64,000 nt of DNA from an uncultured Candidatus Saccharibacteria bacterium (GTDB lineage: Bacteria > Patescibacteriota > Doudnabacteria > UBA920): NCBI GenBank assembly GCA_964504715.1, contig CAZDEP010000001.1, forward strand, positions 16,830 through 80,829, given 5' to 3'. Of this stretch, positions 8,198 through 44,136 are shown in pieces (the stretch's first letter is position 1; each line of letters opens with the position of its first letter). The notes beneath the pieces were generated by a model, which saw nothing but the letters and a program-made list of their open reading frames with translations, had not been told where the DNA came from and searched no databases. The position numbers and the translations under genes were made by a program.

Positions 8198-8650
8198 ATG
8201 CAATATCCGGTACCACAATTCACCGATGTAGAGGACAAGCTCATAGGGCCTTTGGGCGCTAAGCAGTTTTTTATTGTTTTCGCAGCGGGCATCCTTATTT
8301 TTGCCGGATATTCCGCCACCAAAAGCATAGTAGCTCTCATTTTGCTGATTGTAATTTTCGGCTTGCCGGCTTTGGGTCTGGCGTTTGCCAAAATCAACGG
8401 CAGGCCCGCTTACAGGCAGCTTGGCTTTTTAATGTCTTTTTTTACCGCGCCCAAAAAACTGATTTTCCATAAAGAAGCGGTAAATTTTTCCCAAGAGACC
8501 AAAATGAAGGACATAAAGCTGGAAACGCAAGATACGGGGCCGGTTGAATCAAAAGAAACCACCCAGCAAAGGCTAAAAACAGTCCAGGAGCTATTAAGGA
8601 AACAGCAGGAAGAGGAAGAGATGCTTATTGACAAAATTGACCATAATTAA
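8198..8650 (+). CDS. PrgI-family (VirB3-analogous) small membrane protein of Gram-positive-type T4SS
   Basis: N-terminus VPQFTDVEDKLIGPLGAKQFFIVFAAGILIF matches the PrgI consensus (vp.di..EDKi.GPLtlRQf), followed by two TM helices. It sits directly upstream of VirB4, as in conjugation operons. Confidence 0.6.
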   Translation: MQYPVPQFTDVEDKLIGPLGAKQFFIVFAAGILIFAGYSATKSIVALILLIVIFGLPALGLAFAKINGRPAYRQLGFLMSFFTAPKKLIFHKEAVNFSQETKMKDIKLETQDTGPVESKETTQQRLKTVQELLRKQQEEEEMLIDKIDHN

Positions 8651-8744
8651 AAAATTGACAAAATTATGAAGCAGAAAATTAAGTCCTAAAGCAAAAAGCA
8701 ATTTTGTCATTTATGTCAATTTTTTAAATTTTGTCAATATTTAT

Positions 8745-9431: not shown

Positions 9432-9450
9432 ATAGTGAAGTAAGAATTAT

Positions 9451-9910
9451 TCAGATCTGCAGATGGGCGGATTTTACAGATACCTACAGATTTTAAAAGA
9501 TAAAGCTTATGGAAAAAAATGAATTCCTGTACGGTGACGAGACTTATAAATTAAGGGGACTGCTTTTTTCTGTTCATAACGAACTTGGCAGGTTTGCCAA
9601 AGAAAAACAATATTGCGACAAAGCCGAGGAAAAGTTTATCATTAACCAGTGGCCACATGTTAGAGAACCCCAAATCGGAGATATTGGTGATAGACCGGAT
9701 TTTATAGTCTGGGACTTAATTGTTGTTGAGTTTAAAGCAAAACCGTATTCGCAACAATCAGATTTTGAGCAGGTGCAACGTTATTTGCAGCAGACTAAAT
9801 TGAAATTAGGCATACTGGTAAATTTTAGGGCAAAATATTTGAATCCCCAAAGAATTTTGAATATTAATCATCTGCAGGTATCTGTAAAATCTAAAGATCT
9901 GTAGATCGGA
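9451..9910 (+). mobile_element. Element of about 460 bp, bounded by ~33-bp terminal inverted repeats, carrying a GxxExxY-family ORF and inserted into the VirB4 gene
   Basis: Left end is acagatgggcggattttacagatacctacagat. Right end is atctgcaggtatctgtaaaatctaaagatctgtagatcgg, the reverse complement of the left end with a few mismatches. A cargo-less copy of the same ends abuts at 37296-37392. Confidence 0.6.
9509..9904 (+). CDS. GxxExxY-family protein (PD-(D/E)XK nuclease-like fold), cargo of the inserted element
   Basis: LLFSVHNELGRFAKEKQY resembles the family motif (..v..eLGpGflEsvYe..). The spacing here is GxxxxExxY, so the match is a variant. The ORF's C-terminal codons lie inside the right terminal inverted repeat. 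Confidence 0.5.
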   Translation: MEKNEFLYGDETYKLRGLLFSVHNELGRFAKEKQYCDKAEEKFIINQWPHVREPQIGDIGDRPDFIVWDLIVVEFKAKPYSQQSDFEQVQRYLQQTKLKLGILVNFRAKYLNPQRILNINHLQVSVKSKDL

Positions 9911-9920
9911 ATAAAATATC

Positions 9921-11765
9921 TTGAGTATTTTTAAAGCAAAAACCGAAGAAGAGTTGCAGGCCAAAAAAGCCCGGCTCGAGGAGATGGAGCAGGAAAGCAA
10001 TGCGGGCAGGCGGCTTAAGGAAGTGGAAAAAACTTACCGCGAAGGGCTGACGACTCTAAAAGATTTAATAGCGCCCGCGGCTTTGAATTTCCAGGGCTCC
10101 CATTTTGAGCTGAACGGAAAATTTGCCCGTACGTTTTTTGTGCTTGCGTACCCGCGTTTTTTGTCCAGCAATTGGCTGTCGTTTATTATAAACGCGGAAG
10201 GCGCGCTGGACGTTTCTATTTTTATTTACCCCATAAATTCGGAAACCATTTTAAAGAAGCTTAAATCCAAAGTCGGCGAAATTGGTTCGCAAATGGCCAT
10301 TAACCAGGAAAAAGGCATGGTCAGGGACCCTATGCTCGAAACCGCTTACAAAGACGTGGAGTCTTTGCGCGATTCGCTGGTGCAAGGCACGGAACGCTAT
10401 TTTAGGGTAGGAATTTATTTTACGGTTTACGCCGAAGATTTAAAGCAGCTGGAAGCATTTTCCACTTCGCTTGAGAGCTCTTTGGGTTCCAAATTAATTG
10501 TTACCAAGCGGGCAATAATGCAAACCCAAGCCGGCCTGAATTCCTCTTTGCCTTTGGGGTTGGACGAACTTGATGTCGGCAATAACATGAATACCGGGCC
10601 ACTTTCCACGACTTTTCCGTTTGTGTCTTCGGACGTAACTTCCAACGACGGCATATTGTACGGCATTAACCGCCATAACAACAGCTTAATTTTGTTTGAC
10701 CGGTTTGCCATGGAAAACGCCAACAGCGTGGTTTTTGCCAAGTCCGGCGCCGGCAAATCTTACGCCATTAAGCTGGAAATTTTAAGGAGCTTAATGGTGG
10801 GCACGGAGGTCATAGTTATTGACCCGGAAAACGAGTACAAACATTTGGCCGAAGCCGTGGGCGGCACCTATTTAAACGTTTCTTTAAACAGCAACTCCCG
10901 AATCAATCCTTTTGATATTCCCGTGGGCCTGGAGGGCGAGGACAATACCGACATTATGCGCACCGCCGTGGTAAACCTTTTGGGGTTGGCGAATTTGATG
11001 GTCGGGAAATTAAATCCGACCGAAGAAGCGCTTTTGGACAAGGCCATTTGGCAAACCTATGCCAAAAAAGACATAACCCCCGAGCTGGCGGATTTTAAGA
11101 GCATTGAACCTCCGACCATGAACGACCTTTTGGAAATTTTGGCCGGCACGGTGGGCGCGGAGAATTTGGCCCAGCGGTTTTCTAAATTCACGGAAGGCAC
11201 TTTTGCGGGACTGTTTAACCAGCCGACCAATGTGGTTTTAAACAACTTGCTGGTGGTTTTTTCCATTAGGGATTTGGAAGAAGAATTGAGGCCCATCGCC
11301 ATGTATATAATCCTAAATTATATATGGAATATTGTCAGAAGCGAATTAAAAAGAAGGATTATGGTAATTGACGAAGCCTGGATCCTTATGCAGCACGAGG
11401 ACAGCGCCCGTTTCCTGTTTGGCATAGCCAAAAGGGCCCGCAAATATTATTTGGGCCTGACAACCATTACGCAAGATGTGGTGGATTTCATGAACAGCCC
11501 TTACGGCAAGCCGATTGTTACTAACTCTTCCATCCAATTGCTTTTAAAACAGTCACCGGCTGCCATTAACGTAATTGCCGAAACTTTCTTTTTAACCGAA
11601 GGCGAAAAATACCTGCTTTTGGAAAGCGAAGTGGGCGAGGGGATTTTCTTTGCGGGCAACAAGCACGCGGCAATTAAAATTTATGCCTCCTACGTCGAAG
11701 ACCAAATTATAACCACGGACCCGAAGCAGTTATTAGAGATAAAAGAAAGCCAGGAAACAGTTTAA
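9921..11765 (+). CDS. virB4: VirB4/TrbE-family T4SS ATPase, remaining ~614 aa: middle domain plus C-terminal AAA+ ATPase
   Basis: LKDLIAPAALNFQGSHFELNGKFARTFFVLAYPRFLSSNWLSFIINAEGALDVSIFIYP matches the VirB4 middle-domain consensus. Walker A is FAKSGAGKSYAIK, Walker B is RIMVIDEAW. The track's first codon is TTG. Confidence 0.85.
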   Translation: MSIFKAKTEEELQAKKARLEEMEQESNAGRRLKEVEKTYREGLTTLKDLIAPAALNFQGSHFELNGKFARTFFVLAYPRFLSSNWLSFIINAEGALDVSIFIYPINSETILKKLKSKVGEIGSQMAINQEKGMVRDPMLETAYKDVESLRDSLVQGTERYFRVGIYFTVYAEDLKQLEAFSTSLESSLGSKLIVTKRAIMQTQAGLNSSLPLGLDELDVGNNMNTGPLSTTFPFVSSDVTSNDGILYGINRHNNSLILFDRFAMENANSVVFAKSGAGKSYAIKLEILRSLMVGTEVIVIDPENEYKHLAEAVGGTYLNVSLNSNSRINPFDIPVGLEGEDNTDIMRTAVVNLLGLANLMVGKLNPTEEALLDKAIWQTYAKKDITPELADFKSIEPPTMNDLLEILAGTVGAENLAQRFSKFTEGTFAGLFNQPTNVVLNNLLVVFSIRDLEEELRPIAMYIILNYIWNIVRSELKRRIMVIDEAWILMQHEDSARFLFGIAKRARKYYLGLTTITQDVVDFMNSPYGKPIVTNSSIQLLLKQSPAAINVIAETFFLTEGEKYLLLESEVGEGIFFAGNKHAAIKIYASYVEDQIITTDPKQLLEIKESQETV

Positions 11766-11770
11766 TTCTA

Positions 11771-11860
11771 TTGACATAATTGACAAAATTTAAATAATTG
11801 ACAAGATTGGGATTCGAAATTTTGCTCAATTTTGTTCAATTATGTCATTTTTGTCAATTT
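11771..11860. promoter_or_regulatory. Dyad-symmetric array of TTGACA-like repeats (about 3 forward, 4 reverse) upstream of the 970-aa gene
   Basis: ttgacataattgacaaaatttaaataattgacaag ... tttgctcaattttgttcaattatgtcatttttgtcaattttt. Similar arrays are at 8655-8740, 55519-55560 and 60705-60750. Confidence 0.45.
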
Positions 11861-11864
11861 TTTT

Positions 11865-14744
11865 ATGGCCGACGATAATAAACCAACAGGCTCAGCAGGC
11901 GTGGCGGAAGAAGCGCCGGCAAAAAAACCGGACGATGCGCCCAAACAGCGTCCGCTTTCAGGCAGGCCGCTAATTATTCAGTTTGGCATACCGATCCCGG
12001 GCGTGGGCGCGGTAATTAACGGTGTTTCCATAGACAATTTTCCCGCCCAGGGCACCCAGGCGGAAATAAACGGCGGGTCTTTTATCAGCCTCGTAGGGAT
12101 CGGCTTGGACAGGTTTGACGACGAATATTGGCGGCTGGAAAGGCAGGGGAAAAAACCTGTGGAGTTGAAAGTTGTGTCCGCAGGCACGGGCGGCGAAGGG
12201 AAAAATTCTTTGAGGGGGAGGTGGGTAACTTTGCAGGTGCCCCGCTCCGAAGTTTCGGGCCTTAATCCCAATGAAAGTTTAGGCCTTAGCTTTTTTAGCA
12301 GCCGGATTGGGGGCAAGTTGCGCACCTTGCCAATGGTTTTTGTTTTTAAATCTGACTCTAGCCAGACCCAGGCAGCGCAGACTGTTTCCAATGCGCCCCA
12401 AATCCCGGTACAGCCCGGTAACATGGGCCCGGGCAATTTATCGGCAAACGGCGGGGCCGGAGTTTTTTCTGGGGCTGAATTGGGCGGACAGGTAATAGGC
12501 GGGGCCGCAAAAGCCGCTGCCGGGGCTTTTTCCGCGGGCGCTGGAGACAAACCCGCATCCGGCCCAATAAAAGCATCAGGCACCTTAAAATCTATGAGCA
12601 CGACGGCCTCTGCTGCTCTGGGCGGCGTCCAGGCGGACTTAGATGGGGGCGGCGGGGAAGTTTCTGTTTCAGAAACCGTAAAAACCACGGGCGCCGCGTT
12701 GCCTCAAACAGTAAAGCAAAGCGTGGAGGTTATAGGCGAGCATTTGGACAAAACCCCCGAGCTTATTGTAAATGCCAACGTCAGGCAAAAAATTTCTTCG
12801 GCGTTAAAAAGCGGTAATCTGTCTTCCTTAAGCGCGGAAGAAAAACAAACTTTAAATACAACCCTAAAGACTGTTACCGAAGGCGGTGGGCAGGTTTCGG
12901 CACAAGTTCAGGCCGCAGCGGGCATTATTTTAAACAGTGAAATAACCGGGGAGGCGCAAGTTAAGGCGCAAGGGCGCGCATCAACCACGGACGAAGCCCC
13001 TGTTAAGCAAACCATGCCAGCCGAAGCTGAAGAATCTGTCCAAGCCCAAACAGCTCCCTCGGCCCAGCCCAAAACCCAATCAATGAGTTTGGGCCAAAGC
13101 CTGCAAGCTACAGGGGAATTTTTGCAAAAAAATAATATCATTCCTAACTTTAAAGGCAGTCGCGGGCGAATTTTACAAGCTTTGGCCAACGGAAAAATTA
13201 ACGAACTTTCCGAAGACGACAGGGAAGTTTTGGCCGGCGCTTTAAAGTCGGCCAAATCGCAAGCGCCGGCCTCACTGCAAGCGTCTTTAAATAAAACAGC
13301 CCAAGCGGTAGCTACAGGACCCAAGGCCGAGGCAAATATTTCCAAGCCGTCGGAAATTAAAGAGACCGCGCTTAAAGCGAGCGCGCCTTTGTCGGTTAAG
13401 CGGGAGTTTGACGCGAAAATCGCGCAAATGAATACTGCGGGGCGTAAAGTTGATGCCGCGGTTTTGGGCAAAAGGCCCGAAGGCGCCGATGAAATAAATT
13501 TAAGCCGGGGAAAAGACATTAAAGTTAGGGAAAAAGAAAAGGCTGAAGAATCCGTCAAAGAAGGCGCAGAAGGGGCGGAAATAGGAACGCAATCTCCGCA
13601 GGAAGGCGAATTATCCAGGCAGGAAGGTATGCCCGAGGAAAAAATTTCCCCGGTTCTTCCCATGCCGCCGGCCGCTCCGGAAAAAACCGAAGAAGAAAAA
13701 GACGAGCCTAATTCAAAATCAGGTATCAAACGCAAGCCCGAAGAAAAATCCGGCGAAAACAATCCGGAGGAGCTAAGCCAGGACGAACAAAACCGTTTGG
13801 CGGAATTGGAAGAACAGCAGGCGCGGCTGCAAAATCAGGAAAGGCTTAAAGCCGTAAAAGAACAACAAGAGCAAAGTCTCGCCCGGCAGGCCGCGGAAAA
13901 AGAGGCAAACGCCGCTCTAAACGCTGTTTTAATGAAAGGCATTATGGCAGTCTGGCTTGCCGCCGTCGAAACTTTGGGACTTTCAATTTTAGTGGGCGCT
14001 TTGGCGGGAGATGTAATTTGGATTTTTAAAGGGTGGATTTTAAAAAAATTTGAATCTGGCAGAAACATTTTAAACAAATTTCATGGCGGAAAAAATGCGG
14101 GGCACTTAAAAATAGAGTTAAGCGGGAAAGTAAAGTTGAATATTATTGCCATGAACCTGGCAGTAGTGGCGGTAATTATTTTTTTGGCGGGCATACTCTT
14201 TGCGGCTATTAGGTTTGGTTGCAAAACTTATTTGCTGAGGGGCGATTATTGCGCAGTAATTAACAATATGGATTTTGAGTCGTTTAAGTCTTATATTACT
14301 GTGCCAACTGTCCCGGCGGCGCCCGTTGGGGGCGTATGCAGCCCGGTTCCGGCCGGCGTGGCCAGCCCTTCGGCTTTGGCTGGCACTTGCTTTGGGCAAA
14401 ACGCTTCCGCGGCTTCCATGATAGCCGCGGCGGAAAGCGGGGGAGACCCGGGCAAGGCAAGCCGCGTGGATATTTGTACGGTGGACAACAGCGTGGTTTC
14501 CTGGGGCCTGTTCCAAATAAATTTAAGCGCGCATAAAATCGGCAGCCTGGATTGCCCCAAAGCTTTTAGCAAAATGTATACCGGCAGCAGCAAAGACTGC
14601 CGCGTGGTGGACCAGGCGCTGTACCAACTGTGTGTTAAGGCCGCTACCGCTCCCGACTCTCAAATCCAAACCGCCTGCGCAATTTCCGGCAACGGCAGCA
14701 ACTGGAACGCTTGGCTGAATACTAAAAATAAATGCGGACTTTAA
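11865..14744 (+). CDS. Giant T4SS-associated protein. It has a ~190-aa N-terminal domain, a ~500-aa Ala/Gln/Lys/Glu-rich disordered linker, two hydrophobic helices, and a C-terminal lytic transglycosylase (SLT/VirB1-like) domain.
   Basis: C-terminal ...AAAESGGDPGKASRVDICTVDNSVVSWGLFQINL carries the SLT catalytic Glu-Ser and the GLxQ(I/V) motif at the expected spacing. Hydrophobic helices are at about aa 690-715 and 750-775. The ATG at 11865 is preferred over the upstream TTG. Confidence 0.6.
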   Translation: MADDNKPTGSAGVAEEAPAKKPDDAPKQRPLSGRPLIIQFGIPIPGVGAVINGVSIDNFPAQGTQAEINGGSFISLVGIGLDRFDDEYWRLERQGKKPVELKVVSAGTGGEGKNSLRGRWVTLQVPRSEVSGLNPNESLGLSFFSSRIGGKLRTLPMVFVFKSDSSQTQAAQTVSNAPQIPVQPGNMGPGNLSANGGAGVFSGAELGGQVIGGAAKAAAGAFSAGAGDKPASGPIKASGTLKSMSTTASAALGGVQADLDGGGGEVSVSETVKTTGAALPQTVKQSVEVIGEHLDKTPELIVNANVRQKISSALKSGNLSSLSAEEKQTLNTTLKTVTEGGGQVSAQVQAAAGIILNSEITGEAQVKAQGRASTTDEAPVKQTMPAEAEESVQAQTAPSAQPKTQSMSLGQSLQATGEFLQKNNIIPNFKGSRGRILQALANGKINELSEDDREVLAGALKSAKSQAPASLQASLNKTAQAVATGPKAEANISKPSEIKETALKASAPLSVKREFDAKIAQMNTAGRKVDAAVLGKRPEGADEINLSRGKDIKVREKEKAEESVKEGAEGAEIGTQSPQEGELSRQEGMPEEKISPVLPMPPAAPEKTEEEKDEPNSKSGIKRKPEEKSGENNPEELSQDEQNRLAELEEQQARLQNQERLKAVKEQQEQSLARQAAEKEANAALNAVLMKGIMAVWLAAVETLGLSILVGALAGDVIWIFKGWILKKFESGRNILNKFHGGKNAGHLKIELSGKVKLNIIAMNLAVVAVIIFLAGILFAAIRFGCKTYLLRGDYCAVINNMDFESFKSYITVPTVPAAPVGGVCSPVPAGVASPSALAGTCFGQNASAASMIAAAESGGDPGKASRVDICTVDNSVVSWGLFQINLSAHKIGSLDCPKAFSKMYTGSSKDCRVVDQALYQLCVKAATAPDSQIQTACAISGNGSNWNAWLNTKNKCGL

Positions 14745-16598: not shown

Positions 16599-16675
16599 GT
16601 GTCCTTTTTGGGCATTTAGGTTTTTGAAAGTCTTAAATTTCTAATTAGCCTAATTTCTAATATCTAAATAGGCCT

Positions 16676-16695
16676 CAATTCCCAATTGGGAATTG
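16676..16695. promoter_or_regulatory. Perfect 18-bp palindrome AATTCCCAATTGGGAATT upstream of radA (candidate operator)
   Basis: caattcccaattgggaattg lies about 50 bp upstream of the radA start, inside an AT-rich region that also has CTAATTTCTAA repeats. Confidence 0.35.
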
Positions 16696-16744
16696 GACAT
16701 TATTTAGGTCAATTAGTACAATTAGAGTAATTAGGAATTTTTTA

Positions 16745-18073
16745 ATGGTTAAAACTAATACAATTTTTGTTTGCTCGAATTGCAATTACCAAAGCCCCAA
16801 GTGGCAGGGCAAGTGCCCCAACTGCGGCGAATGGAATACTTTTGAGGAAAGGACGCAAGTTAGCAGGGGGAAATCTCAGGGGCAGGTGCAGGCCGCCAAG
16901 TCTGTGGGACTTTCGTCGCTTGGAGGCGGACAACGGCCCAGGGTCCAAAGCGGGATTTCGGAGTTTGACGAAGTAATCGGCGGAGGCCTTGTGGCGGGTT
17001 CGCTCGTGCTTTTGGGCGGCGATCCGGGCATTGGCAAATCTACCCTGGCTTTACAAATTTCCTTAAACCTCCAGGACCGGGTGCTTTATGTTTCCGGTGA
17101 AGAGTCGGCCAACCAAATAAAAATGAGAGCCGACCGGATTACAAAAAACCAAAATTTGCAGGTTTTGTCCGAGACCAACCTCGACGCCGTATTGAGTTCT
17201 GTGGAAGCGCAAACGCCTGAAATTGTAATTGTCGATTCCATCCAAACTATGTATTCCGAAGACGCCAGCGGCGTGGCCGGGGGCGTGGCGCAAGTAACGA
17301 GCGCAGTGCAGAAAATAATGCGCCTGGCCAAAAGCAGCCATATAACTTTTATCCTCATCGGCCATGTTACCAAGGAAGGGTATTTGGCAGGGCCCAAAAC
17401 TTTGGAGCATATGGTTGATACCGTGCTGTATTTGGAGGGCGAAAGGTTTGCAAACTTACGCATTTTGCGCGGCGTAAAAAACCGCTTTGGCACGACCAAT
17501 GAAGTGGGCGTTTTTGAAATGTCGGGAGGCGGATTGGCGGAAGTTAAAAATCCTTCCCAGCTGTTTTTGGGTGAAGATTCCATAAAAGCATCGGGCAACA
17601 CCATTACCAGCGTTATGGAAGGCAGCCGCGCCCTGCTTATAGAAATCCAGGCCCTGACTTCCCCCAGCAATTTTGGCTATCCCAAGCGTACAACCAGCGG
17701 CTACGACAACAACCGTTTGCAGCTTATTACCGCCATACTATCCAAGCGCGCGGGCTTGAACCTCTCCAACCAGGATATTTTTGTAAATGTGGTGGGCGGC
17801 ATAAAGATTGAAGAACCCGCGGCCGATTTGGCAGTGGCTCTGGCAATAGTTTCCAGTATGAAAGATATAATTATCCAGGAGGCGGTAGTAATCGGCGAGC
17901 TGGGGCTTTCCGGGGAATTAAGGTTTGTGCCCAATTTGGAAAAAAGGATAAAAGAAGCGGAGAAGCTGGGTTTTAAAAAAGCCATCTGTCCTAAAGGCAA
18001 AATCGCCTTAAAGTCTTCCAAACTTGAAATAGTCCAAGTTAGAACCCTCTCTGAAGCCATTAGCAAACTTTAG
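16745..18073 (+). CDS. radA: DNA repair protein RadA/Sms
   Basis: N-terminal C4 zinc finger CSNCNYQSPKWQGKCPNCGEW, Walker A GGDPGIGKST, the KNRFG motif, and a Lon-protease-like C-terminal domain. Confidence 0.9.
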   Translation: MVKTNTIFVCSNCNYQSPKWQGKCPNCGEWNTFEERTQVSRGKSQGQVQAAKSVGLSSLGGGQRPRVQSGISEFDEVIGGGLVAGSLVLLGGDPGIGKSTLALQISLNLQDRVLYVSGEESANQIKMRADRITKNQNLQVLSETNLDAVLSSVEAQTPEIVIVDSIQTMYSEDASGVAGGVAQVTSAVQKIMRLAKSSHITFILIGHVTKEGYLAGPKTLEHMVDTVLYLEGERFANLRILRGVKNRFGTTNEVGVFEMSGGGLAEVKNPSQLFLGEDSIKASGNTITSVMEGSRALLIEIQALTSPSNFGYPKRTTSGYDNNRLQLITAILSKRAGLNLSNQDIFVNVVGGIKIEEPAADLAVALAIVSSMKDIIIQEAVVIGELGLSGELRFVPNLEKRIKEAEKLGFKKAICPKGKIALKSSKLEIVQVRTLSEAISKL

Positions 18074-18102
18074 AAATTTTTTAATATTTTATAACTTTTC
18101 TC

Positions 18103-18138
18103 CCCATAGGCTAATTCGGGCGAATTAGCCTATGGGGT
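18103..18138. repeat. About 30-bp perfect palindrome, copy 1 (ccccataggctaattcgggcgaattagcctatgggg)
   Basis: A near-identical copy in inverted orientation (centre ggc versus ccc) is at 22584-22620. Together they bracket a 4.4-kb cassette between the convergent radA and recG genes. Confidence 0.6.
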
Positions 18139-18237
18139 AAGTTAAAATTGTGTTCAAATAATTCCCCTTATTTGACAGGGTTTTAGAGTTTGTTATTATA
18201 TATAAAATAGAGGTTTAAAAATAAGGAAACAAAATAT

Positions 18238-18516
18238 ATGAAAAAATGGTTGATATTTATTTTTTTGGTAATTCTGCCGTTTGTTTTGGGGATATTTTAT
18301 GATAAAAAATTTGAGTATGCGGGCAATTGGCTGGAGGATTATCAAAATTATTTTAAAGTAGGATTCTTGTTGGTATCTATAACTTCTTCCGCATGGTTAG
18401 CCCTAATTGCAAAGAAGGAAAAAAATATTTTTTTGCTTGTTGTGTCAGTAATAATATTTATAATATTATCTTATATATTATATTTAGGCATAAACTTAAT
18501 TAGTATTTCCTTCTAA
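18238..18516 (+). CDS. Small hydrophobic membrane protein (hypothetical)
   Basis: 92 aa with 3 predicted TM helices; very AT-rich codon usage. Confidence 0.3.
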   Translation: MKKWLIFIFLVILPFVLGIFYDKKFEYAGNWLEDYQNYFKVGFLLVSITSSAWLALIAKKEKNIFLLVVSVIIFIILSYILYLGINLISISF

Positions 18517-18536
18517 ATTCATATTTATCCACCCAT

Positions 18537-21440
18537 ATGAAAAAACTTCTCTTCCTTCTCCTTCTCTTTGCCCTTGTCTTCCCCCTGCCTATGTCAGCGG
18601 ACGAAAACTTGTGCCCCCAGTTCAGCCAGCACAGCGCCGGAGAGGGGTTTGTAGACTACGAAAGCCATGAGTACATCAATGGCTTTTTAAGTATCCACTT
18701 TAAATTAGCTCCCAATTCAAACCATAAACTGGGTACAGCCTACAAGCTTTTAAGGAGTTCTGACTGCCAGGAAGCCGCCCCCGGAGGCTGGTGGTCCATG
18801 GGCACCTTTGATATTCCCCAGGAGGTAAATAACTTCTCCATCCGCTTTTACCAGCGGATTAATTTCGGGGAGTATAAATACAGAGTCTATAACGACGATA
18901 CGAACCAGGTAATCAACTGTGATGCCTGTGATACCGGCTTCTGGAACATGGTCTACTTTGGCGGTGAACCGCCCCATAAATTCTGGCTGACCCTGTATAC
19001 CCCTTATGATTTTGGCTACATTCCCAACCTTTCCGTCCTCCCACCCACCAGGTTTATTGCCTCTGCCCCGGACATTGAGCAGCCTGAATACACAGGGAAA
19101 ACCCCGGTACTCATAGTGCCGGGCGTATTAGGTAGTAATTTAATAAAAGGCGATAGTAATTTATGGGTCAATCCCGTTAAAATGGTTAACGATTTTAGTG
19201 ATCAGTTCATGGACCCCTTGCAATTTACAGAAAATCTTGTCCCATTAGATTCTTCAATATTATTAGATAATGTTATTAGAAAAGAAAGTTATCTATTTTT
19301 TGATTTTGATTATACTTTTGGTCTAATAAATATTTTTTCTAATCAAGGTTACACCGAAAATAAAGACCTTTTTACCTTTCCCTATGATTGGCGCTACGGA
19401 GTTACGGGTGTATACGGGGACGGTACAAATAATGTGGGAAAATTAAAACAGAAAATTGAAGCAATAAAATTGCAAACCGGTTCTCCAAAAGTTGATATTA
19501 TAGCCCATAGCAACGGCGGGCTTTTGGTAAAGAAGTATGTTATGGAAAATCCCTCCAACCACAGCATTAACAAAGCAATTTTTGTGGGTGTGCCAAATTT
19601 GGGCGCCCCAAAAGCTGTCAAAGTATTATTACAAGGCGATAATTTTGGCGTCAAAGGACTTTCTGATGAAGAAATGAAAAAGATAGCAAAGAATATGCCC
19701 GGAGTTTACGATTTAGCCCCTGGAAAAAATTACTTTGATGCCAAGGGGAGTTATGTCAAAATCATCGAACAGAAGTTTATGGCCACAGACCCCGTTCGGG
19801 ACTTGGATTTTTCAGCCGTAAGGCAGTTTTTAGGCGGTGACCACGGTTTGAATTACGCGGCCTACGACAATGGGCAAGCCCTGCATAACAATGCTTTCGA
19901 AAACTTTGACCTGCGCACTGCGGGTGTGGATATGTACAATATAGTCGGTTGCAAAAGCGGGACCATAGGCGGGATTACAGAAGTCCGCAGTAAAGACTTT
20001 TTTGGTAACCCCTTGTTTAATTACAGACGGCCCAGCATTGTGTCTGGAGATGAAACAGTACCCTACGAAAGTGCCAACAGCATAAAAGTAGATGATGGGA
20101 AAGTATACTACGCTAAAAAATATACTCACTCCGAAATGCTAAGTGCCAATGGCACCCGAGAATTAATTGTAAACCTAATCTTAGGGCAAAATCTTTTAAA
20201 GATGGGGTCAAATATTATTCCGAGGCAGGGAGTACTCGCCGACCCCAGCCATTGTGAGTTGAATGGCAAGAAAATAGATATTTTAAGCCCGGTGGATATT
20301 GAGGTTTTTGACCAAAGCGGGAACCGTTTGGGCAAAGCGGCGGACGGGAGCCTGGAAAGCAATATTCCGGGTGCAGACATAAATGTCTTTGGGGACAAAA
20401 AATTTGTCTATTTGCCCACTGACAGCGGCGAGGTGTATGATATTAAACTAAAAGGCGAGGGTGAGGGCAGATTTACTTTAAATGTGCAGGATATTTCAGG
20501 CAGCCAGGAGGGGAGCACTGAAGTTTTTCCCAACCTGCCGGTTTCCCCAAGGCTTTTAGGCAATTTGTCTTTAGGTGCTAATTCCAGCGTTTTGAAGCTG
20601 GACAATAATGGCGACGGTGTGGTGGACAATACTTTAAATCCGGCGGCCGTTTTAAACCCCAACCAATCCCAAGACCTCCTTCCGCCCGTTTCAACCTCCA
20701 CCCTTGTTGGCACTATGGGCCAGCCGGGGTTTTACCGTAGCAATGTCCAAATAACCTTAAGCGCTAAGGATGTGGTGGTGCCGGGGTATGAATTAGAGAC
20801 TTCGGGCCTTCTTAGCTTAAAGTTTAGGCTGGATAATGCTTCAAGTACGCCCTATTCTACCTATTCAAGTCCTATTCTGGTGGAGGGGGAAGGCAAACAT
20901 ACCTTAGAATTCTTTTCCACGGACAAAGCCGGTAATAACGAAGAGGTTCAGACTGTAAATTTTGTAATAGATAAAACCGCTCCGGAATTTACAATTCAGT
21001 TCAATACGGTCTCCAAAGATTTTGATTATGCTGCAACGGATAACCAGGATATCCCCGTATCTATTGTTTGTAATACCACCCAATGCAGCAGTAGCGACAT
21101 GGCGGGCAATGCCAGCATATTTAAATATGAAAAGAAATCACTGGCAAATTCCAAAAATTTGCTTTTGAAAAGTATAAATTACAACAGGAAAATAACGAAT
21201 TTTGACCCTAACCTTTTTAACGTTATTTATAGCCTCAATAAGGGGGAAATGGCTGAAATTAGTCAAACCATACTTATAAAAAACCAGCAGGTTGCTAACA
21301 TTATGTATAACAGAAAATTAAACCAGTCAATTTATACTGACTGGTCAAAAGGCACAAAACCTGTTATTACTAAACTTGAAGGTCTTAAATATTTACAATT
21401 ACAAACAAATAACTCAAAAATTAAGGTTAATCAAAAATAA
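18537..21440 (+). CDS. Large secreted protein with an N-terminal class-2 lipase-like alpha/beta-hydrolase domain (AHSNGG nucleophile elbow) and a long C-terminal beta-rich adhesin-like extension
   Basis: Signal peptide MKKLLFLLLLFALVFPLPMSA. VLIVPGVLGSN plus IIAHSNGGLLVKKY resembles the Bacillus LipA/LCAT-type AHSxGG lipase motif. The C-terminus has calcium-binding-like DNNGDGVVDN and Big-like segments. Confidence 0.55.
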   Translation: MKKLLFLLLLFALVFPLPMSADENLCPQFSQHSAGEGFVDYESHEYINGFLSIHFKLAPNSNHKLGTAYKLLRSSDCQEAAPGGWWSMGTFDIPQEVNNFSIRFYQRINFGEYKYRVYNDDTNQVINCDACDTGFWNMVYFGGEPPHKFWLTLYTPYDFGYIPNLSVLPPTRFIASAPDIEQPEYTGKTPVLIVPGVLGSNLIKGDSNLWVNPVKMVNDFSDQFMDPLQFTENLVPLDSSILLDNVIRKESYLFFDFDYTFGLINIFSNQGYTENKDLFTFPYDWRYGVTGVYGDGTNNVGKLKQKIEAIKLQTGSPKVDIIAHSNGGLLVKKYVMENPSNHSINKAIFVGVPNLGAPKAVKVLLQGDNFGVKGLSDEEMKKIAKNMPGVYDLAPGKNYFDAKGSYVKIIEQKFMATDPVRDLDFSAVRQFLGGDHGLNYAAYDNGQALHNNAFENFDLRTAGVDMYNIVGCKSGTIGGITEVRSKDFFGNPLFNYRRPSIVSGDETVPYESANSIKVDDGKVYYAKKYTHSEMLSANGTRELIVNLILGQNLLKMGSNIIPRQGVLADPSHCELNGKKIDILSPVDIEVFDQSGNRLGKAADGSLESNIPGADINVFGDKKFVYLPTDSGEVYDIKLKGEGEGRFTLNVQDISGSQEGSTEVFPNLPVSPRLLGNLSLGANSSVLKLDNNGDGVVDNTLNPAAVLNPNQSQDLLPPVSTSTLVGTMGQPGFYRSNVQITLSAKDVVVPGYELETSGLLSLKFRLDNASSTPYSTYSSPILVEGEGKHTLEFFSTDKAGNNEEVQTVNFVIDKTAPEFTIQFNTVSKDFDYAATDNQDIPVSIVCNTTQCSSSDMAGNASIFKYEKKSLANSKNLLLKSINYNRKITNFDPNLFNVIYSLNKGEMAEISQTILIKNQQVANIMYNRKLNQSIYTDWSKGTKPVITKLEGLKYLQLQTNNSKIKVNQK

Positions 21441-21441
21441 T

Positions 21442-21780
21442 ATGACAAAAGGGCAAAAGATAGGGTTTTGGGCGGTGTTGGGATTGTTTATTCTTCCAGA
21501 AGTATTATGGAGTCCGGTGGGGAATTTTATTTATGCATTTATAAAAGACAGGCCTTTTAGAAACAATGCTCTTATGCATTCTGATTTCAGGGGCTTTGCA
21601 TTATTTATTGTATCATTGCAATTTATAGGAATATTTTCAGTTTTGGTAGTCTTATTAAAAGATAAAACATATCAATCATTTAAAGCAGGGCGAGTCCTAG
21701 TTTTTATAATTAGTATTGTTACCCTTGCCACTTTGGTGGTTTTATATACTCTTTTCGCTACAAAAAATATTAATATCTAA
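21442..21780 (+). CDS. Small 3-4 TM membrane protein, paralog A (candidate immunity-like protein)
   Basis: MTKGQKIGFWAVLGLFILPEVLWSPVGNFIYAFIK is about 70% identical at the N-terminus to the ORF at 22157. The ATG at 21442 is preferred because the track start at 21376 overlaps the upstream gene. Confidence 0.45.
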   Translation: MTKGQKIGFWAVLGLFILPEVLWSPVGNFIYAFIKDRPFRNNALMHSDFRGFALFIVSLQFIGIFSVLVVLLKDKTYQSFKAGRVLVFIISIVTLATLVVLYTLFATKNINI

Positions 21781-21848
21781 AAGAAGAAATATTATTTTTT
21801 GTCCCAAGTATTTAGTAAACCGCTCAAAAAAATTAATAAAATAAATTA

Positions 21849-22145
21849 GTGACTAGCAATAAAAGATTTAATTCACTCATCTTTACCACCATCGTTTTAC
21901 CCTACTTGCTTTCTTTCTTAAATTGGAAATATTCTTCATACGACAATTTTAGATGGGGTTATGATCATATAAATCAGCTAAGTATTATGGGGATAGCAAT
22001 TGCCGTTTTGGGTTCCGGGTTAGTGTTGTATTTGAATAACAAGGAAGGCAAAAACAAAAGTTGGAATATTATAGGGGGTTTATTGCTGGTATTCAATCTA
22101 GTTTATTTGTACATCGCGTACAATTTTTCTCATTTTGGCTTTTAG
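21849..22145 (+). CDS. Small membrane protein (hypothetical, GTG start)
   Basis: 98 aa with 3 hydrophobic helices, between the two paralogs. Confidence 0.3.
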   Translation: MTSNKRFNSLIFTTIVLPYLLSFLNWKYSSYDNFRWGYDHINQLSIMGIAIAVLGSGLVLYLNNKEGKNKSWNIIGGLLLVFNLVYLYIAYNFSHFGF

Positions 22146-22156
22146 CTTAAAAATTT

Positions 22157-22525
22157 TTGCATAAAATGACAAAGAAACAAAGGATCGGATTTTGGAGTAT
22201 TTTAGGGTTATTTATTTTGCCGGAAGTTTTATGGAGTCCGGTGGGGAATTTTATTTACTCTTTATTAAAACCCCCAGTCAATGGATCAGTACAGGTTTTA
22301 AGGAATAACTTCCTCCTTACTAATAAATATGACAATTTTTTTAGCGCCGTGTTGTTTATCCAGCTTTTGGGTTTGTTTGCTTCCGCAGTTTACCTAATTG
22401 TCATGCATAACTCAGTGCGAAATAAATGGCTGCTTTGGCCTTCCATGATTATCCTTTTGTTTTCATCGGTAGTGGTTTTTTACCTTTTTGGTTTCTCTAT
22501 CACCCTAAGGAACATTGGCTTTTAG
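22157..22525 (+). CDS. Small membrane protein, paralog B of 21442-21780
   Basis: KKQRIGFWSILGLFILPEVLWSPVGNFIYSLLK aligns with paralog A. Confidence 0.45.
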   Translation: MHKMTKKQRIGFWSILGLFILPEVLWSPVGNFIYSLLKPPVNGSVQVLRNNFLLTNKYDNFFSAVLFIQLLGLFASAVYLIVMHNSVRNKWLLWPSMIILLFSSVVVFYLFGFSITLRNIGF

Positions 22526-22583
22526 GCTTAAAATAAATCAAAAAGTTATAAAATCAATTAATATAAGCCATTTACCCGCCCTT

Positions 22584-22620
22584 GCCTATAGGCTTATTCG
22601 CCCGAATTAGCCTATGGTAG
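22584..22620. repeat. About 30-bp palindrome, copy 2 (cctataggcttattcgcccgaattagcctatgg), inverted relative to copy 1
   Basis: See 18103-18138. It lies just downstream of the recG stop on the minus strand. Confidence 0.6.
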
Positions 22621-22651
22621 GAAAAGCTAGAATCAAGAATCCAAAATCAAA

Positions 22652-24721
22652 TCATTCCAGGTGGATGGTTTGGTTTTGGATTTCTTTTTTTAGTTCAGGG
22701 TAATTATTTAGGCCGGGGTCTTTTTCGAGTAAGGTTTTTGCTTCAGAGCGGGCGGCGGGGATTAGACTAAAGTAGGAGGGGTCAAAATATTTAAAGTTCC
22801 ATCCCGATTGGCTGGATCCAAAAAGTTCGCCAAAGCCGCGGAGTTTTAAGTCGAGTTCGGCAAGCTCAAAGCCGTCCTGGGTTTTTTCAAAGGCTTTAAG
22901 GCGTTTGGTGATATCACTATCGTCCGCGGTTTGGTCCAAGCGGGGCGGGGAAATAAAAAGCAGGCAATAGGACTGGTGGCTGGCCCTGCCTACGCGTCCG
23001 CGGAATTGGTGGAGCTGGGCCAGGCCAAAACGCTCCGCGCCTTCTATTATCATAACGCTGGCATTGGGTACGTCCACGCCCACTTCCACTACGGAAGTGG
23101 AAACCAGAATTTGGATGCGGTTATTTAAAAAAGCGTCCATAACCTGTTCTTTTTCTTCGGCCTTAAGGCGCCCGTGAAGGAGCCCTATTTGGAAGGCGGG
23201 GAAGGCCTTTTTTAAAAGTTCGACTTCGGTTTTGGCCGCCTTAATCCCCAGCCGGTCGTTTTCCTCAATTAGCGGGGTAATTACAAATGCCTGCCTTCCC
23301 GCTTGGATTTGGGTGCGTATGAACGAATAAGCATCCGGTCTTTTGTCGGGGGGCGTGAGTTTGGTAATAATTGGCTTCCTGTCAGCCGGCTTGGTTTTTA
23401 TTTGGGAGATATCCAATTCGCCATAAACCGCCAGCTGCAGGGTGCGGGGGATGGGTGTGGCCGAAAGCGAAAGCAGGTGCGGCACCGTGGGTTTATTAAG
23501 CAGCATGGCAGAGCGCTGCTTTACGCCAAAGCGGTGCTGTTCGTCTATTATGACCAAGGCCAGGCTGCCAAATTCCACTTTATTTTGCAAAAGGGCGTGG
23601 GTGCCAATGAAAATGCCGGGCGCGCCGGTTTTAATTAATTTATGCAGGTCGGCTTTTTTAAGTTCCTCATTGGCAACTTGCGCATAGCTGTGGGTGAGCA
23701 GGGCGAGTTTAAAATTTGCAAGGTGGGGCTTTAAGAATTTTTTTGCGGTTTCAAAATGTTGTCGCGCTAAAATTTCCGTAGGCGCTAGGAAAGCGACCTG
23801 CTTTTTGGCACGGGCAGTTTGCAGGGCGGCAATTAAAGCCACCAAAGTTTTGCCCGAGCCGACATCACCTTCCAAAAGGCGGTTCATGGGGGCAGGCTTT
23901 TCCAAGTCCTGCAAAATATCCCAGGCGGACTTTTTTTGTTCGGGCGTAAGCGCAAAAGGCAGGCTGTCGACAAAATTTTTAACCAGCTCACGGTCAAATT
24001 TTACCGCGTGAGCCTTTTTTTTGCTTAATTCCTGCTTGTATTTTTGTACTGCCAGCTGGACCATAAAAATTTCCTCAAAAGACATGCGGGTCCTGGCGCT
24101 TTGTGCATCGGTTAAATTTTTTGGAAAGTGGGCCAGCTCCACGGTTTTTTCCAGCGCAGGCAGGGTATATGGCTTTAAAATTTCGGGAGGCAGCCTGTCT
24201 TTGAGTTCGTGCTTAAAGGGCAGGGCCTTGCTTATGAGGTTGCGCAGAGTTTTCGGGTATAAGCCGGAGGTTAAATGGTAAACAGGCAGCAAGCGCGAGG
24301 TATGCACTGGAAATTCGCCGGCTTTTTCGTAAAGCGGGTTTACAAATTGCAGACGCCCGTTATAAGTTTCCACCACGCCCGCAATAAAAATCTCATCGCC
24401 CACTTTTAAGCTTTTGGCCAGGTAGGCTTGGTTAAACCAAATGACTTTTATGTTGCCCGTATCGTCGGCTATGAGCGCTTCGGCCAGGCTTAGGCGCCCC
24501 CGAAAGGAAAAGCGGCTGCCAATGCTTTTTATTTTCCCGCCCACGCTTACATTTTCCCCGGCTTTTAGCTCTTTAATTTTTTTTACTTCGGAAAAGTCCA
24601 AATAGCGGTAAGGGAAATACAACAACAAATCCCGAACCGTATGAATTTCGAGTTTTTTTAAAGCCGCTAAAAGCGGCTTATTTAGACGGCCAAGTATTTC
24701 AATGGGGGAGTTTACATCCAT
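22652..24721 (-). CDS. recG: ATP-dependent DNA helicase RecG
   Basis: OB-fold wedge region, helicase motifs GDVGSGKT (I), DEQHRFG (II), and QxxGRVGR motif VI (HQFRGRVGR). Confidence 0.9.
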   Translation of the reverse strand: MDVNSPIEILGRLNKPLLAALKKLEIHTVRDLLLYFPYRYLDFSEVKKIKELKAGENVSVGGKIKSIGSRFSFRGRLSLAEALIADDTGNIKVIWFNQAYLAKSLKVGDEIFIAGVVETYNGRLQFVNPLYEKAGEFPVHTSRLLPVYHLTSGLYPKTLRNLISKALPFKHELKDRLPPEILKPYTLPALEKTVELAHFPKNLTDAQSARTRMSFEEIFMVQLAVQKYKQELSKKKAHAVKFDRELVKNFVDSLPFALTPEQKKSAWDILQDLEKPAPMNRLLEGDVGSGKTLVALIAALQTARAKKQVAFLAPTEILARQHFETAKKFLKPHLANFKLALLTHSYAQVANEELKKADLHKLIKTGAPGIFIGTHALLQNKVEFGSLALVIIDEQHRFGVKQRSAMLLNKPTVPHLLSLSATPIPRTLQLAVYGELDISQIKTKPADRKPIITKLTPPDKRPDAYSFIRTQIQAGRQAFVITPLIEENDRLGIKAAKTEVELLKKAFPAFQIGLLHGRLKAEEKEQVMDAFLNNRIQILVSTSVVEVGVDVPNASVMIIEGAERFGLAQLHQFRGRVGRASHQSYCLLFISPPRLDQTADDSDITKRLKAFEKTQDGFELAELDLKLRGFGELFGSSQSGWNFKYFDPSYFSLIPAARSEAKTLLEKDPGLNNYPELKKEIQNQTIHLE

Positions 24722-24726
24722 ATTTA

Positions 24727-24801
24727 TGGTGCTTCCAGCAGGAGTCGAACCTGCATCTCAGCCTTCGGAGGGCTACACTCTATCCATTGAGCTATGGAAG
24801 C
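24727..24801 (-). tRNA. tRNA-Arg (anticodon CCG)
   Basis: The reverse complement folds as a cloverleaf: acceptor GCTTCCA/TGGAAGC, anticodon stem TAGCC/GGCTG, loop CTCCGAA, T-loop GGTTCGACTCC. CCA is encoded. Confidence 0.8.
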
Positions 24802-25541: not shown

Positions 25542-25631
25542 TGGCGGAAGCGAGAGGATTCGAACCTCTGAAGGGTTTTAGCCCTTAGCGGTTTTCAAGA
25601 CCGCCCCGTTCGACCGCTCCGGCACGCTTCC
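25542..25631 (-). tRNA. tRNA-Ser (anticodon UGA)
   Basis: Reverse complement GGAAGCGTGCCGGAGCGGTCGAACGGGGCGGTCTTGAAAACCGCTAAGGGCTAAAACCCTTCAGAGGTTCGAATCCTCTCGCTTCCGCCA; long variable arm, anticodon loop CTTGAAA. Confidence 0.8.
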
Positions 25632-27603: not shown

Positions 27604-27748
27604 TTGTTACAAATTAAGGAATATTTCCGGGGAAAAAGCAATGCCAGAGAGTATTATAGCAAAAAACGCCGATTTTGGGCGTTTGGCTTGCTTTGACCGT
27701 AAGTTATTTTTATTGTAAAATTATTCAAGACCAATAAGTTTTTGCAAC

Positions 27749-27842
<94 letters not shown>

Positions 27843-28035
27843 TTGGCAATCAAATAACCCGATCAGTTGTATGACTGCCAATAGCTAACAAAGGGATTCG
27901 AAAAGAGCGGTCCCCGGGCAAAGCCCGGGGAATTGAAAGCGAGCAAGCGCAGCTTTCAATAGCGGCAGGGGTCGCTGTAGTGTAGCGCGATTCTATCCGC
28001 CGCCAGGCGGATAGATGAGCGCAGCGTGAAGTGAC
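27843..28035 (-). mobile_element. About 190-bp tRNA-3'-end-associated element, copy 2 (inverted relative to copy 1), bounded by a 28-bp direct duplication of the tRNA-Ser(GCU) 3' end
   Basis: cgaatcccaccctctccgccattggcaa occurs at 27822-27849 (tRNA 3' end plus 7 nt) and again at 28036-28063. The core atagcggcaggggtcgctgtagtgtagcgcgattc...gagcgcagcgtgaagtgac is the reverse complement of the copy 1 core. Confidence 0.6.
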
Positions 28036-43110: not shown

Positions 43111-44136
43111 TTATTTATTCAACCACTTTCTTATTTCCTGAATTGGCGGGCGGGAGGGGCTTGATATCCAACGAATATTTTTATTCCTTTTCCACCATGT
43201 CATTTGCCGTTTGCTGTAGTGCTTAATCGCAAAAGAAAGCTGGGACACCATAGCATCGTAAGAAATTTTATTTTGAAGATACAGGGAGACAAAACGGTAT
43301 TCCAAACCGAACTGTTCAAGGCGTTTCCAGGTAAGACCATAACCGCCCCTAACCCCTCCTTTGAAAGGAGGGGAATGCAGACTCTTAACTTCTTGGATCA
43401 TACCCGCCTTAAGGCGCGCTTTTAGCCGCTTGTCGATTTTTTTATATAAATCAGCCTGGGGGATTTTTATGCCGAGCCATAGGACTTGGTTTAAGGGATC
43501 CTTCGACTCACCCTCGAGGCCGTCGGGTTCGCTCAGGATGGCGGAGCGTGGCGGAACCGGTTTGCCTGTGGTTAAAATAATTTCCAGCGCGCGAATGAGC
43601 CGTCGTTTGTTATGGCGGTCAATGGTTTTAGCCCTGGCCGGATCGAGTCGGCTAATTCCGGCGAATAAGCCGGTGGTGGAAAGTTTTTCCAGTTTCGCGC
43701 GAAGTTTTAGGTTGGGCTTTACGTCCGGCAGATTTTGGCCGTAAACCACGGCGTCTATCCAGTGGCCGGTGCCGCCGCAGAGAATGGGTAGCTTGCCGCG
43801 GCTCACGATATCATCAACTATTTTTTTTGCCCGGCTTTTAAAAAGCGCAACTGAAAATTGCCTGTGTGGATCAACAAAGTCAATTAAATGGTGGGGGATG
43901 GATTTGTAGACATACACATAATCCGAATGATCCGAATGCTGCAATCCGAATGATCCAAAAGGGGAGTGTTGCCATTGGCCTTCAATTTTCCCTGTGCCTA
44001 AGTCCATACCTTTGTAAATTTGCCGGCTGTCTACGGAAATTATTTCGCCATTAAAACGCTTGGCCAGCTTGACGGCCAATTCGGATTTGCCCGAGGAAGT
44101 GGGGCCGACAATAATTAATAGCTTGTAGGGAGTCAT
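43111..44136 (-). CDS. miaA: tRNA dimethylallyltransferase MiaA
   Basis: P-loop IIVGPTSSGKSELAVKLA, then SVDSRQIYKGMDLGTGK, then PHHLIDFVDP. It carries an in-frame palindrome (43354-43374) and a 3x tandem repeat (43905-43950). Confidence 0.85.
   Translation of the reverse strand: MTPYKLLIIVGPTSSGKSELAVKLAKRFNGEIISVDSRQIYKGMDLGTGKIEGQWQHSPFGSFGLQHSDHSDYVYVYKSIPHHLIDFVDPHRQFSVALFKSRAKKIVDDIVSRGKLPILCGGTGHWIDAVVYGQNLPDVKPNLKLRAKLEKLSTTGLFAGISRLDPARAKTIDRHNKRRLIRALEIILTTGKPVPPRSAILSEPDGLEGESKDPLNQVLWLGIKIPQADLYKKIDKRLKARLKAGMIQEVKSLHSPPFKGGVRGGYGLTWKRLEQFGLEYRFVSLYLQNKISYDAMVSQLSFAIKHYSKRQMTWWKRNKNIRWISSPSRPPIQEIRKWLNK

Follow-up and report, generated by a model that had tools for sequence, protein, structure and literature searches.

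The 64-kb window analyzed here (64,000 nucleotides of contig CAZDEP010000001.1) comes from a member of the Patescibacteria, also known as the candidate phyla radiation (CPR), and its RadA protein, 70-75% identical to genomes of the Genome Taxonomy Database (GTDB), places the organism as a Candidatus Doudnabacteria-type Patescibacterium. Between radA (16745..18073, plus strand, 442 aa) and recG (22652..24721, minus strand, 689 aa), the conserved left and right flanks of the locus, lies a block of plus-strand genes that is bordered by two long palindromes, termed P1 and P2 in the following. An initial annotation had located this block between convergent radA and recG genes and had suggested that the palindromes at its borders are insertion or recombination sites. 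Pfam confirms the identity of both convergent genes, and the two palindromes, of which the second is inverted with a CC instead of a GG centre, are real, their coordinates being shifted by 1-3 nt. They belong to a family that is present in many ultra-small bacteria of groundwater and is linked in other genomes to the gene of a small ArsR-type winged-helix protein, for which they may serve as binding sites.

Three palindrome copies in the window

P1 (18102..18137) is a perfect palindrome, CCCCATAGGCTAATTCG-GG-CGAATTAGCCTATGGGG, the 17-nt arms of which (18102-18118 and 18121-18137) are 100% complementary and enclose a 2-nt GG centre; like the other copies, it is not assigned to a strand. It starts 29 nt past the radA stop codon and ends 35 nt ahead of the -35 box of the block promoter, and is hence not positioned over that promoter. 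P2 (22585..22617), with the last open reading frame (ORF) of the block on one side and the 3' end of recG on the other, is an inverted copy of P1 that shows 2 mismatches in 32 nt when read on the minus strand, as compared to 4 when read directly. Such matches are not expected in shuffled sequence (0.00), and outward of the palindromes, a weak similarity between the P1 and P2 sites continues (48 nt, 85%). P1 is calculated to fold as RNA with about -32 kcal/mol (z = -5 to -6), and the fold of P2 is weaker (z = -0.7 to -2.6). Both palindromes therefore have the stem of an intrinsic terminator and lack its U-run, as T-runs are missing after both copies and on both strands, in agreement with what had been noted initially. 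An Rfam scan of the window at the gathering threshold returned three tRNAs only and nothing at the palindromes, and a GAAC-N4-GTTC box was considered and rejected, as the palindrome does not have that form. P1 and P2 share with the family consensus described below the 12-2-12 inverted repeat TAGGCTAATTCG-NN-CGAATTAGCCTA, and four of the five occurrences of the half-site TAGGCTAATTCG (at most 1 mismatch) are found inside P1 and P2.

The third copy, P3, is a copy of the 22-bp core (GGCTAATTCCGGCGAATAAGCC; 43650..43671) inside the coding region of miaA. It shares 20 of 22 core bases with P1, including the GG centre, and encodes the residues GLFAGISR without changing the protein length as compared to solved MiaA proteins, which have a helix segment of the same length at this position. 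On this comparison, P3 overwrites miaA sequence and is not an insertion. The miaA copy demonstrates that the palindrome is not restricted to block borders. Like P2, P3 lies away from promoters. The window thus contains three copies, one of them intragenic, and all three have a GG centre, which is specific for this lineage.

A palindrome family and the gene of a small ArsR-type protein

The core pattern GGCTWATTCGNNCGAATWAGCC (GGCTWATTCG-NN-CGAATWAGCC, 22 bp) was run on metagenome contigs of the Joint Genome Institute (JGI) and on viral contigs. It matched at least 120 metagenome contig stretches and had 0 matches in the viral contigs; by our estimate, only few chance matches to the core are to be expected. 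All family statistics given here rest on 120 listed loci (672 kb, GC content 0.32-0.62), which contain 137 copies, with eleven loci harboring 2-4 copies within a few kb and a background density of roughly one additional copy in 40 kb. That the core does not vary in the alignment is imposed by the search pattern and is hence no evidence of conservation, but the flanks outside the pattern are informative: T is found at position -4 in 61%, A at -3 in 90% and T at -2 in 82%, mirrored on the opposite side, and TAT/ATA flanks are present in 80-90% of the copies overall. The consensus TAT(A/C)-GGCTAATTCG-YR-CGAATTAGCC-(T/G)ATA is a 12-2-12 to 14-2-14 inverted repeat, the centre of which is YR (pyrimidine-purine) in 135 of 137 copies (TG/CA 104, TA 26, CG 5). 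The two arms vary together. Column 10/33 (position -1) pairs as A-T in 52, as C-G in 52 and as G-C in 10 cases, column 15/28 (the inner W) as A-T in 114 and as T-A in 12 cases, and the arm covariation score was reached by 0 of 500 shuffles. A run of at least six T in the 10 nt past the stem accompanies 14 of the 137 copies and is missing in the other 123. P1, P2 and the miaA copy are recognizable by sequence as members of this conserved palindrome family of Patescibacteria. Rfam searches with nine palindrome-rich loci at E values up to 1 gave only chance matches to microRNA-like hairpins, and literature searches revealed no description of this palindrome, of a CPR palindrome or of a CPR ArsR operator; searches with the sequence string itself returned primers only.

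As far as the crude ORF calls in the metagenome loci permit an assignment, 58 copies lie in co-directional gaps, 24 in convergent gaps, 12 in divergent gaps and 20 inside ORFs, with a median distance of 51 nt to a facing 3' end versus 67 nt to a departing start. Genes ending at a copy are assorted housekeeping genes. Among the 89 genes starting after a copy, the ArsR-type genes of about 86 aa are the largest group with 10 members, and dinB (3), ogt (2), restriction endonuclease-like genes (2) and dnaE (1) follow. A DNA-repair theme among the neighbors (dinB 3 upstream and 1 at the 3' end, ogt 2-3, dnaE 1) was considered and is kept as a lead only, as most neighbor genes are unrelated housekeeping or hypothetical genes. 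The initial annotation had held that a highly abundant repeat of the repetitive extragenic palindromic (REP) type, scattered without relation to gene-block boundaries, would speak against its proposal, and this is largely the picture obtained, with copies in the most varied gene contexts, and also inside genes, on at least 120 metagenome contigs.

These intragenic copies are real. They are found in fmt in three contigs (L103:1004, L105:2166, L130:883), in a metallo-beta-lactamase (MBL)-fold gene in three other contigs (L118:1161, L125:2882, L127:3339), and also in tatD, in a YggS-like gene, in degT and in a GT1 gene, and the Doudnabacterium locus L004 carries a copy inside comF (L004:17752). 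The core in fmt is translated as ANSHELA; these residues fall in a variable surface loop, and the length is the same as in solved Fmt. The core has only one stop-free frame, and the copies in fmt, the MBL-fold gene and comF always use it (ANS-x-ELA). Neither a terminator nor an insertion of mobile DNA easily explains copies of this kind, and they would match a DNA site that selection or copying has established in place. Taken together, the presence of real intragenic copies and the small number of T-runs favor a site that acts at the DNA level over a pure terminator.

The family is also associated with an 86-aa protein of the HTH_5/HTH_20 (ArsR/SmtB) type, the gene of which is present in 23 of the 120 loci. 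In nearly all of these 23 loci, a copy or near-copy of the palindrome is found 11-98 nt ahead of the ATG of this gene, and a second copy 0-75 nt past its stop codon. A -10 box follows about 24-29 nt beyond the upstream copy, and the site thus abuts the -35 position of the ArsR-like gene. By sequence features, the protein is a winged helix without a catalytic domain and without Cys/His metal sites; its closest solved homologue is HlyU, and named homologues are from Candidatus Yanofskybacteria and Giovannonibacteria, for example.

Two loci, L221 (Candidatus Yanofskybacteria) and L225, were selected through the protein and not through the palindrome, and therefore represent an independent test of this association. 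In L221, there are three copies of the variant CTAATTCG-AA-CGAATGGGCGAAT, two before the ArsR-like gene and one over its stop codon. In L225, CTATTCCCTTATTCGTGAGAATAAGGGAATAG precedes the ArsR-like gene and CTATTCTCTTATTCTCACGAATAAGAGAATAG follows it. No further copies of these variant palindromes occur elsewhere in the 20 kb of L221 and L225. As each variant flanks its own gene, the protein and the flanking palindrome vary together. The ArsR-like gene and its palindromes are embedded in toxin-antitoxin-rich islands (L221 2518-11375, L225 10571-11760; PhdYeFM/ParE, HicA, MazE/Fic), which also contain a type III-like restriction-modification pair, RadC and a TfoX_N gene. Judged from the sequence, the surroundings of the gene in these two loci are accessory rather than core.

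The accessory block and its history

The 13 Doudnabacteria-type relatives from GTDB and the loci L094 and L095 all share the gene order PD40-radA> <recG-orf173-DUF5667. The radA-recG gap in these relatives measures between 43 bp and 1.8 kb and contains other small genes or none, and none of them has a block with a gene for an LCAT-like protein, which is the central gene of the block in the window. Two closer relatives (RadA identity 78-79%) have a DksA/TraR zinc-finger gene inside the gap, and the gap gene at L014 11355-11838 resembles, by eye only, a 3-methyladenine DNA glycosylase gene. With differing gap contents and no LCAT-like block in relatives, the gap can be regarded as variable and the block as accessory, as had been suggested. 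A comparison of related genomes had been suggested in order to see whether a single palindrome copy is present where the cassette is missing, and this was not found: behind radA, many relatives have hairpins that are not related to the palindrome and are often bidirectional terminators of the classical type, and others have none. Also the composition of the cassette had been suggested for comparison, and it does differ: the GC content at third codon positions (GC3) is 0.30-0.46 in block genes versus about 0.50-0.60 in the adjoining genes.

The decisive comparisons come from the loci L083 and L093, which were taken from the 90%-identity RadA cluster. L083, a sister species from an aquatic metagenome (RadA 88%, DNA about 77% identical to the window), has the order radA, a gene for 118 aa, an LCAT-like gene for 948 aa, a gene for 119 aa, and then recG. 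At the position of P1, L083 has CCCCATAGGCTA-attctcctg-TAGCCTATGGGG, in which the outer 12-bp stem is kept and the tip is lost, a decayed form that recurs without change in ten contigs of several samples. Between the last block gene and recG of L083 there are 44 bp and no palindrome at the P2 position, and the window segments 21547-22160 and 22535-22642 have no counterpart. In L093 (RadA 96%, DNA 88.5% identical to the window), radA is not directly followed by a palindrome; instead, there is an ordinary hairpin and a minus-strand gene for a Cys-rich 169-aa protein with its promoter, beyond which the contig ends at CCCCATAGGCTAATTCGCCCGAATTAGCCT. It follows from these two relatives that the block is older than P2, and that palindrome copies come and go independently of the block. 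L082, a contig of the same strain, has the orientation of the window and reads through an imperfect P2. Three independent short-read contigs stop inside a copy, L001 in P1 (at the equivalent of window position 18130), L093 in its own copy and L098 in P2, which is consistent with further identical copies in the genomes or with a hairpin-related loss of coverage. Some candidates for comparison had to be discarded. P0121, from the 90% cluster of RadA/RecG, is a chimeric contig, and P0246 covers the wrong end of recG; neither serves as empty site. The idea that P1 with the promoter, P2 with its flank and the L093 copy with its promoter are one duplicated 110-nt unit was only marginal, as about 5% of shuffles perform equally well.

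The block itself begins with a promoter-like sequence, TTGACA-16-TATTAT with a TG (11/12 matches; 18172..18199, plus strand), in a region that is kept in L083. All genes that follow are on the plus strand. A small hydrophobic protein of 92 aa (18238..18516; GC content 0.27) has no Pfam match, and the L083 sequence differs at its position. The largest gene (18537..21440) encodes the predicted secreted LCAT-like lipase/acyltransferase of 967 aa, with a signal peptide, an LCAT/lipase domain and an Ig-like C-terminal part; this family is common in Patescibacteria. In comparison to L083 (12150-14996), the gene is a mosaic, with 85% identity in the 5' 590 nt, 75% in the 3' 660 nt and no detectable DNA similarity in the middle 1.7 kb, and the proteins are only 52% identical, whereas RadA is 88% identical. 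Such a pattern suggests a surface protein that is subject to recombination or to diversifying selection. Downstream follow genes for three small membrane proteins: paralogue A (21442..21780; probable start MTKGQK), a protein of 98 aa that is absent from L083 (21849..22145), and paralogue B (22157..22525; weak DUF4271 match), which is the orthologue of the single 119-aa gene in L083. A 110-nt direct repeat (21437-21546 and 22161-22270, 77% identical) at the 5' parts of the two paralogues marks what by comparison is a duplicated small membrane-protein gene with one copy in L083, and the extra 724 bp of the duplication also carry the gene of the 98-aa protein. These ORFs are intact genes for small membrane proteins, two of them paralogous, and the idea that the tail of the block is a broken Acyl_transf_3 pseudogene was rejected. 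At the end of the block, a terminator-like 20-bp hairpin followed by the T-run TCTTTTTTT (22638..22682, plus strand) overlaps the last codons of recG and could possibly stop block transcription before recG; the end of its T-run, tttggttttggatttcttttttt, is also found in L083.

Some features outside of the block may be mentioned. Clusters of TAATTAG / CTAATT repeats are found in the intergenic regions 16635-16741 (upstream of radA) and 60209-60358 (upstream of the ORF at 60365), and the cluster before radA includes an imperfect palindrome of 22+22 nt (16664-16707). Further upstream of radA, a conserved cluster (window 8198-14744; L083 1707-7898; L094 1216-6364) contains PrgI-like, TraC-like and VirB4-like (DUF87/AAA_10) genes together with a gene for a protein of about 970 aa, and appears to encode a type IV secretion or DNA-transfer-like apparatus in core synteny. 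About 160 nt around the tRNA gene 27751-27839 (window 27742-27904) match L083 20499-20861 at 90-91% identity when reversed, so that the alignment indicates a small inversion limited to this region; two more tRNA genes are at 24730-24801 and 25545-25631 (minus strand). In L006 (12645-13090; JACRDK01), recG matches in two pieces about 445 nt apart, which may reflect an intervening sequence or a frameshifted region.

Possible functions of the palindromes

Which function could these palindromes have? The explanation that we favor, which we consider evenly balanced between right and wrong, is that the window palindromes are sites bound by a dimer of the small ArsR-type protein, with a possible extra role as RNA 3' hairpins. 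The double-stranded palindrome would be a putative docking site for this dimeric ArsR/SmtB-type winged-helix protein, the own gene of which would typically be bracketed by two copies, and which in this genome would be encoded outside the window. P1 and P2 could then be protein-bound boundary or operator elements at the edges of an older, lineage-specific accessory block, P1 being a boundary or remote operator ahead of the block promoter and P2 a site left at the recG end, with RNA hairpin formation at the 3' ends of the two flanking genes as a possible secondary function. We infer such a protein-DNA partnership, and any regulatory effect that it may have, for this genome; observed directly are the sequences, their distribution and family membership, the gene linkage in other genomes and the history of the block. 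Inverted repeats of the 12-2-12 type, located either ahead of genes or inside them, are bound by SmtB/ArsR proteins (PMC8790569), and P1, P2 and the family consensus all have this form. The operators of SmtB, ZiaR, AztR and AzuR are similar in having 12-14-bp arms around a 2-bp centre, in having a copy right next to the -35 position of the gene for the regulator itself, which for the palindrome is the case in other genomes, and in the existence of sites within genes (PMC8790569). In contrast to these systems, the protein linked to the palindrome has 86 aa and lacks Cys/His metal sites, the gene has a second copy behind it, 3' ends and convergent gaps contain many of the sites, changes in the arms are coupled, one site sequence is common to a very wide range of genomes, and no regulator gene was seen near the copies in the window.

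Several observations weigh against binding by an ArsR-type dimer. Hidden Markov model searches with E values up to 10 detected no ArsR-like gene, neither in the 64 kb of the window nor in some 250 kb from related Doudnabacteria loci. P1 is 35 nt away from the -35 box, and P2 lies between convergent genes where there is nothing to regulate. In the family, the preference for convergent over divergent gaps and the slightly closer distance to 3' ends than to starts point in the same direction. When copies are oriented by their upstream gene, 54 G-U versus 30 A-C mismatches are counted over all stem columns (26 versus 12 in the variable columns only), and the centre is CA in 31 versus TG in 17 cases. 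The excess of G-U and of convergent gaps suggests that the hairpin also matters in transcripts, and the biases towards 3' ends and G-U would agree with a REP-like element or with a hairpin at RNA 3' ends. Moreover, coupled changes in the arms are not expected for independent operator half-sites, but need either a hairpin constraint or a self-correction of the palindrome. A DNA site and an RNA hairpin are, however, compatible with each other.

The main rival is that the palindrome is a REP-like, mobile or copy-prone extragenic repeat that acts as RNA hairpin at transcript 3' ends, either in termination or in protection against 3' exonucleases, with the ArsR-like gene as counterpart of a REP-associated tyrosine transposase (RAYT) gene. 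We regard this as possible, albeit doubtful. The family is multi-copy, mostly intergenic, near 3' ends and more frequent in convergent than in divergent gaps, the arms covary, G-U outnumbers A-C in sense orientation, and the RNA hairpin is strong. The window has P2, which L083 lacks, the L093 copy is at a different place, and three short-read contigs of the lineage end inside a copy. The likeness to REPs and bacterial interspersed mosaic elements (BIMEs) extends to the short, sometimes clustered palindromes and to the gene that is bracketed by two of them, as known from RAYT-REP systems. However, the bracketed gene encodes an 86-aa winged helix of the ArsR type without catalytic domain, and no Y1/HUH transposase is among the 25 neighbor families listed for each set. 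The background density of the palindrome is low, and one sequence is common to contigs with GC contents of 0.32-0.62, whereas REPs are species-specific. The copies in fmt and other genes replace sequence without length change and hence are not insertions, and few copies have T-runs. As to termination, the palindromes share with intrinsic terminators the stable, G+C-containing hairpin right after stop codons, and ordinary terminators occupy the same place after radA in related genomes; the palindromes differ in that a U-tract is missing from the copies of the window and from 123 of the 137 in the family, and in sharing a tip sequence, which terminators do not need.

A chromosome-organisation site with a winged-helix partner, comparable to parS/ParB, matS/MatP or SBS/SlmA, would mark positions rather than regulate neighboring genes. 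This is in line with a long palindrome that occurs, in few copies each, in genomes of very different kinds, with copies that are tolerated and conserved inside housekeeping genes, and with copies that surround the gene of the protein, as parS sites do around parB. On the contigs considered, it nevertheless appears unlikely, as the location of the copy right next to the -35 position at the regulator loci indicates classical autoregulation. No ArsR-type protein is known to have such a role.

It is not supported that the palindromes delivered the block by site-specific recombination, and we hold it for very improbable that they are lox-, dif- or att-like sites for its integration or inversion at all. 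The copies are exactly at the borders of an accessory block of 4.4 kb in a variable gap, their sequence can be divided into 13-bp arms separated by a 6-bp spacer, CGGGCG, their inverted orientation would permit inversion, and imperfect palindromes at the borders of gene cassettes are also typical for integron attC and for lox/dif sites. The sister species L083, however, has the block with a decayed P1 and without P2, integration leaves direct (attL/attR) and not inverted sites, and L082 of the same strain shows the orientation of the window. None of the block genes encodes a recombinase, and no integrase, transposase or resolvase is among 25 of the 73 Pfam families that are matched by the other 49 ORFs of the window. 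Family members occur singly, inside genes and around the regulator gene in many genomes. Unlike attC sites, which have a length of 57-141 bp, the palindromic elements have 30-36 bp and, by inspection, no RYYYAAC/GTTRRRY core sites, and their tip is conserved and their base variable, which is the reverse in attC. As a by-product, the copies may possibly provide short inverted homology for rare RecA-dependent rearrangements. That a species-private terminator hairpin was merely duplicated once at this locus, as might be suspected from only three copies in 64 kb that all share the unusual GG centre, is scarcely credible, as at least 120 metagenome contigs share core and flanks and L004 also has a copy.

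The palindromes also recall the DNA uptake sequences (DUS) and uptake signal sequences (USS) of Neisseria and Haemophilus, which likewise are conserved, occur as inverted pairs after genes and are found within genes at tolerant positions in one frame. DUS and USS lie near DNA-repair genes, and so do the palindromes of the window. Their numbers are very different, though, as DUS and USS amount to hundreds to thousands per genome (about 1 per kb), whereas the density of the palindrome is two to three orders of magnitude lower (3 in 64 kb), and the conserved unit is a 30-bp palindrome and not a 10-12-mer.

Coming back to binding by the ArsR-type protein, a more far-reaching version is conceivable, which is tentative and rather improbable. 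In this version, the palindrome and the 86-aa protein would be a Patescibacteria-wide pair that does more than classical autoregulation, i.e. a self-contained site-gene-site module that spreads its site to gene ends and to tolerant loops of housekeeping genes, and that perhaps serves as genome-wide boundary or roadblock, in chromosome organisation or in the control of DNA-damage tolerance. The genes dinB, ogt and dnaE lie directly downstream of copies elsewhere, and the window copies adjoin radA and recG.

The locus teaches that identical palindromes around a block are no proof of insertion until the palindrome has been counted elsewhere. The block as such, which diverges fast and combines a putatively secreted LCAT-like lipase with small membrane proteins in a variable gap between two repair genes, may matter for the acquisition or remodelling of lipids by these episymbionts. 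Patescibacteria have very small genomes with few recognizable regulators, and their cis-regulatory code is almost uncharted. A long palindrome that is present in many uncultured lineages, that is tied to one winged-helix protein and that can be found with a simple pattern therefore represents a testable handle on this code.

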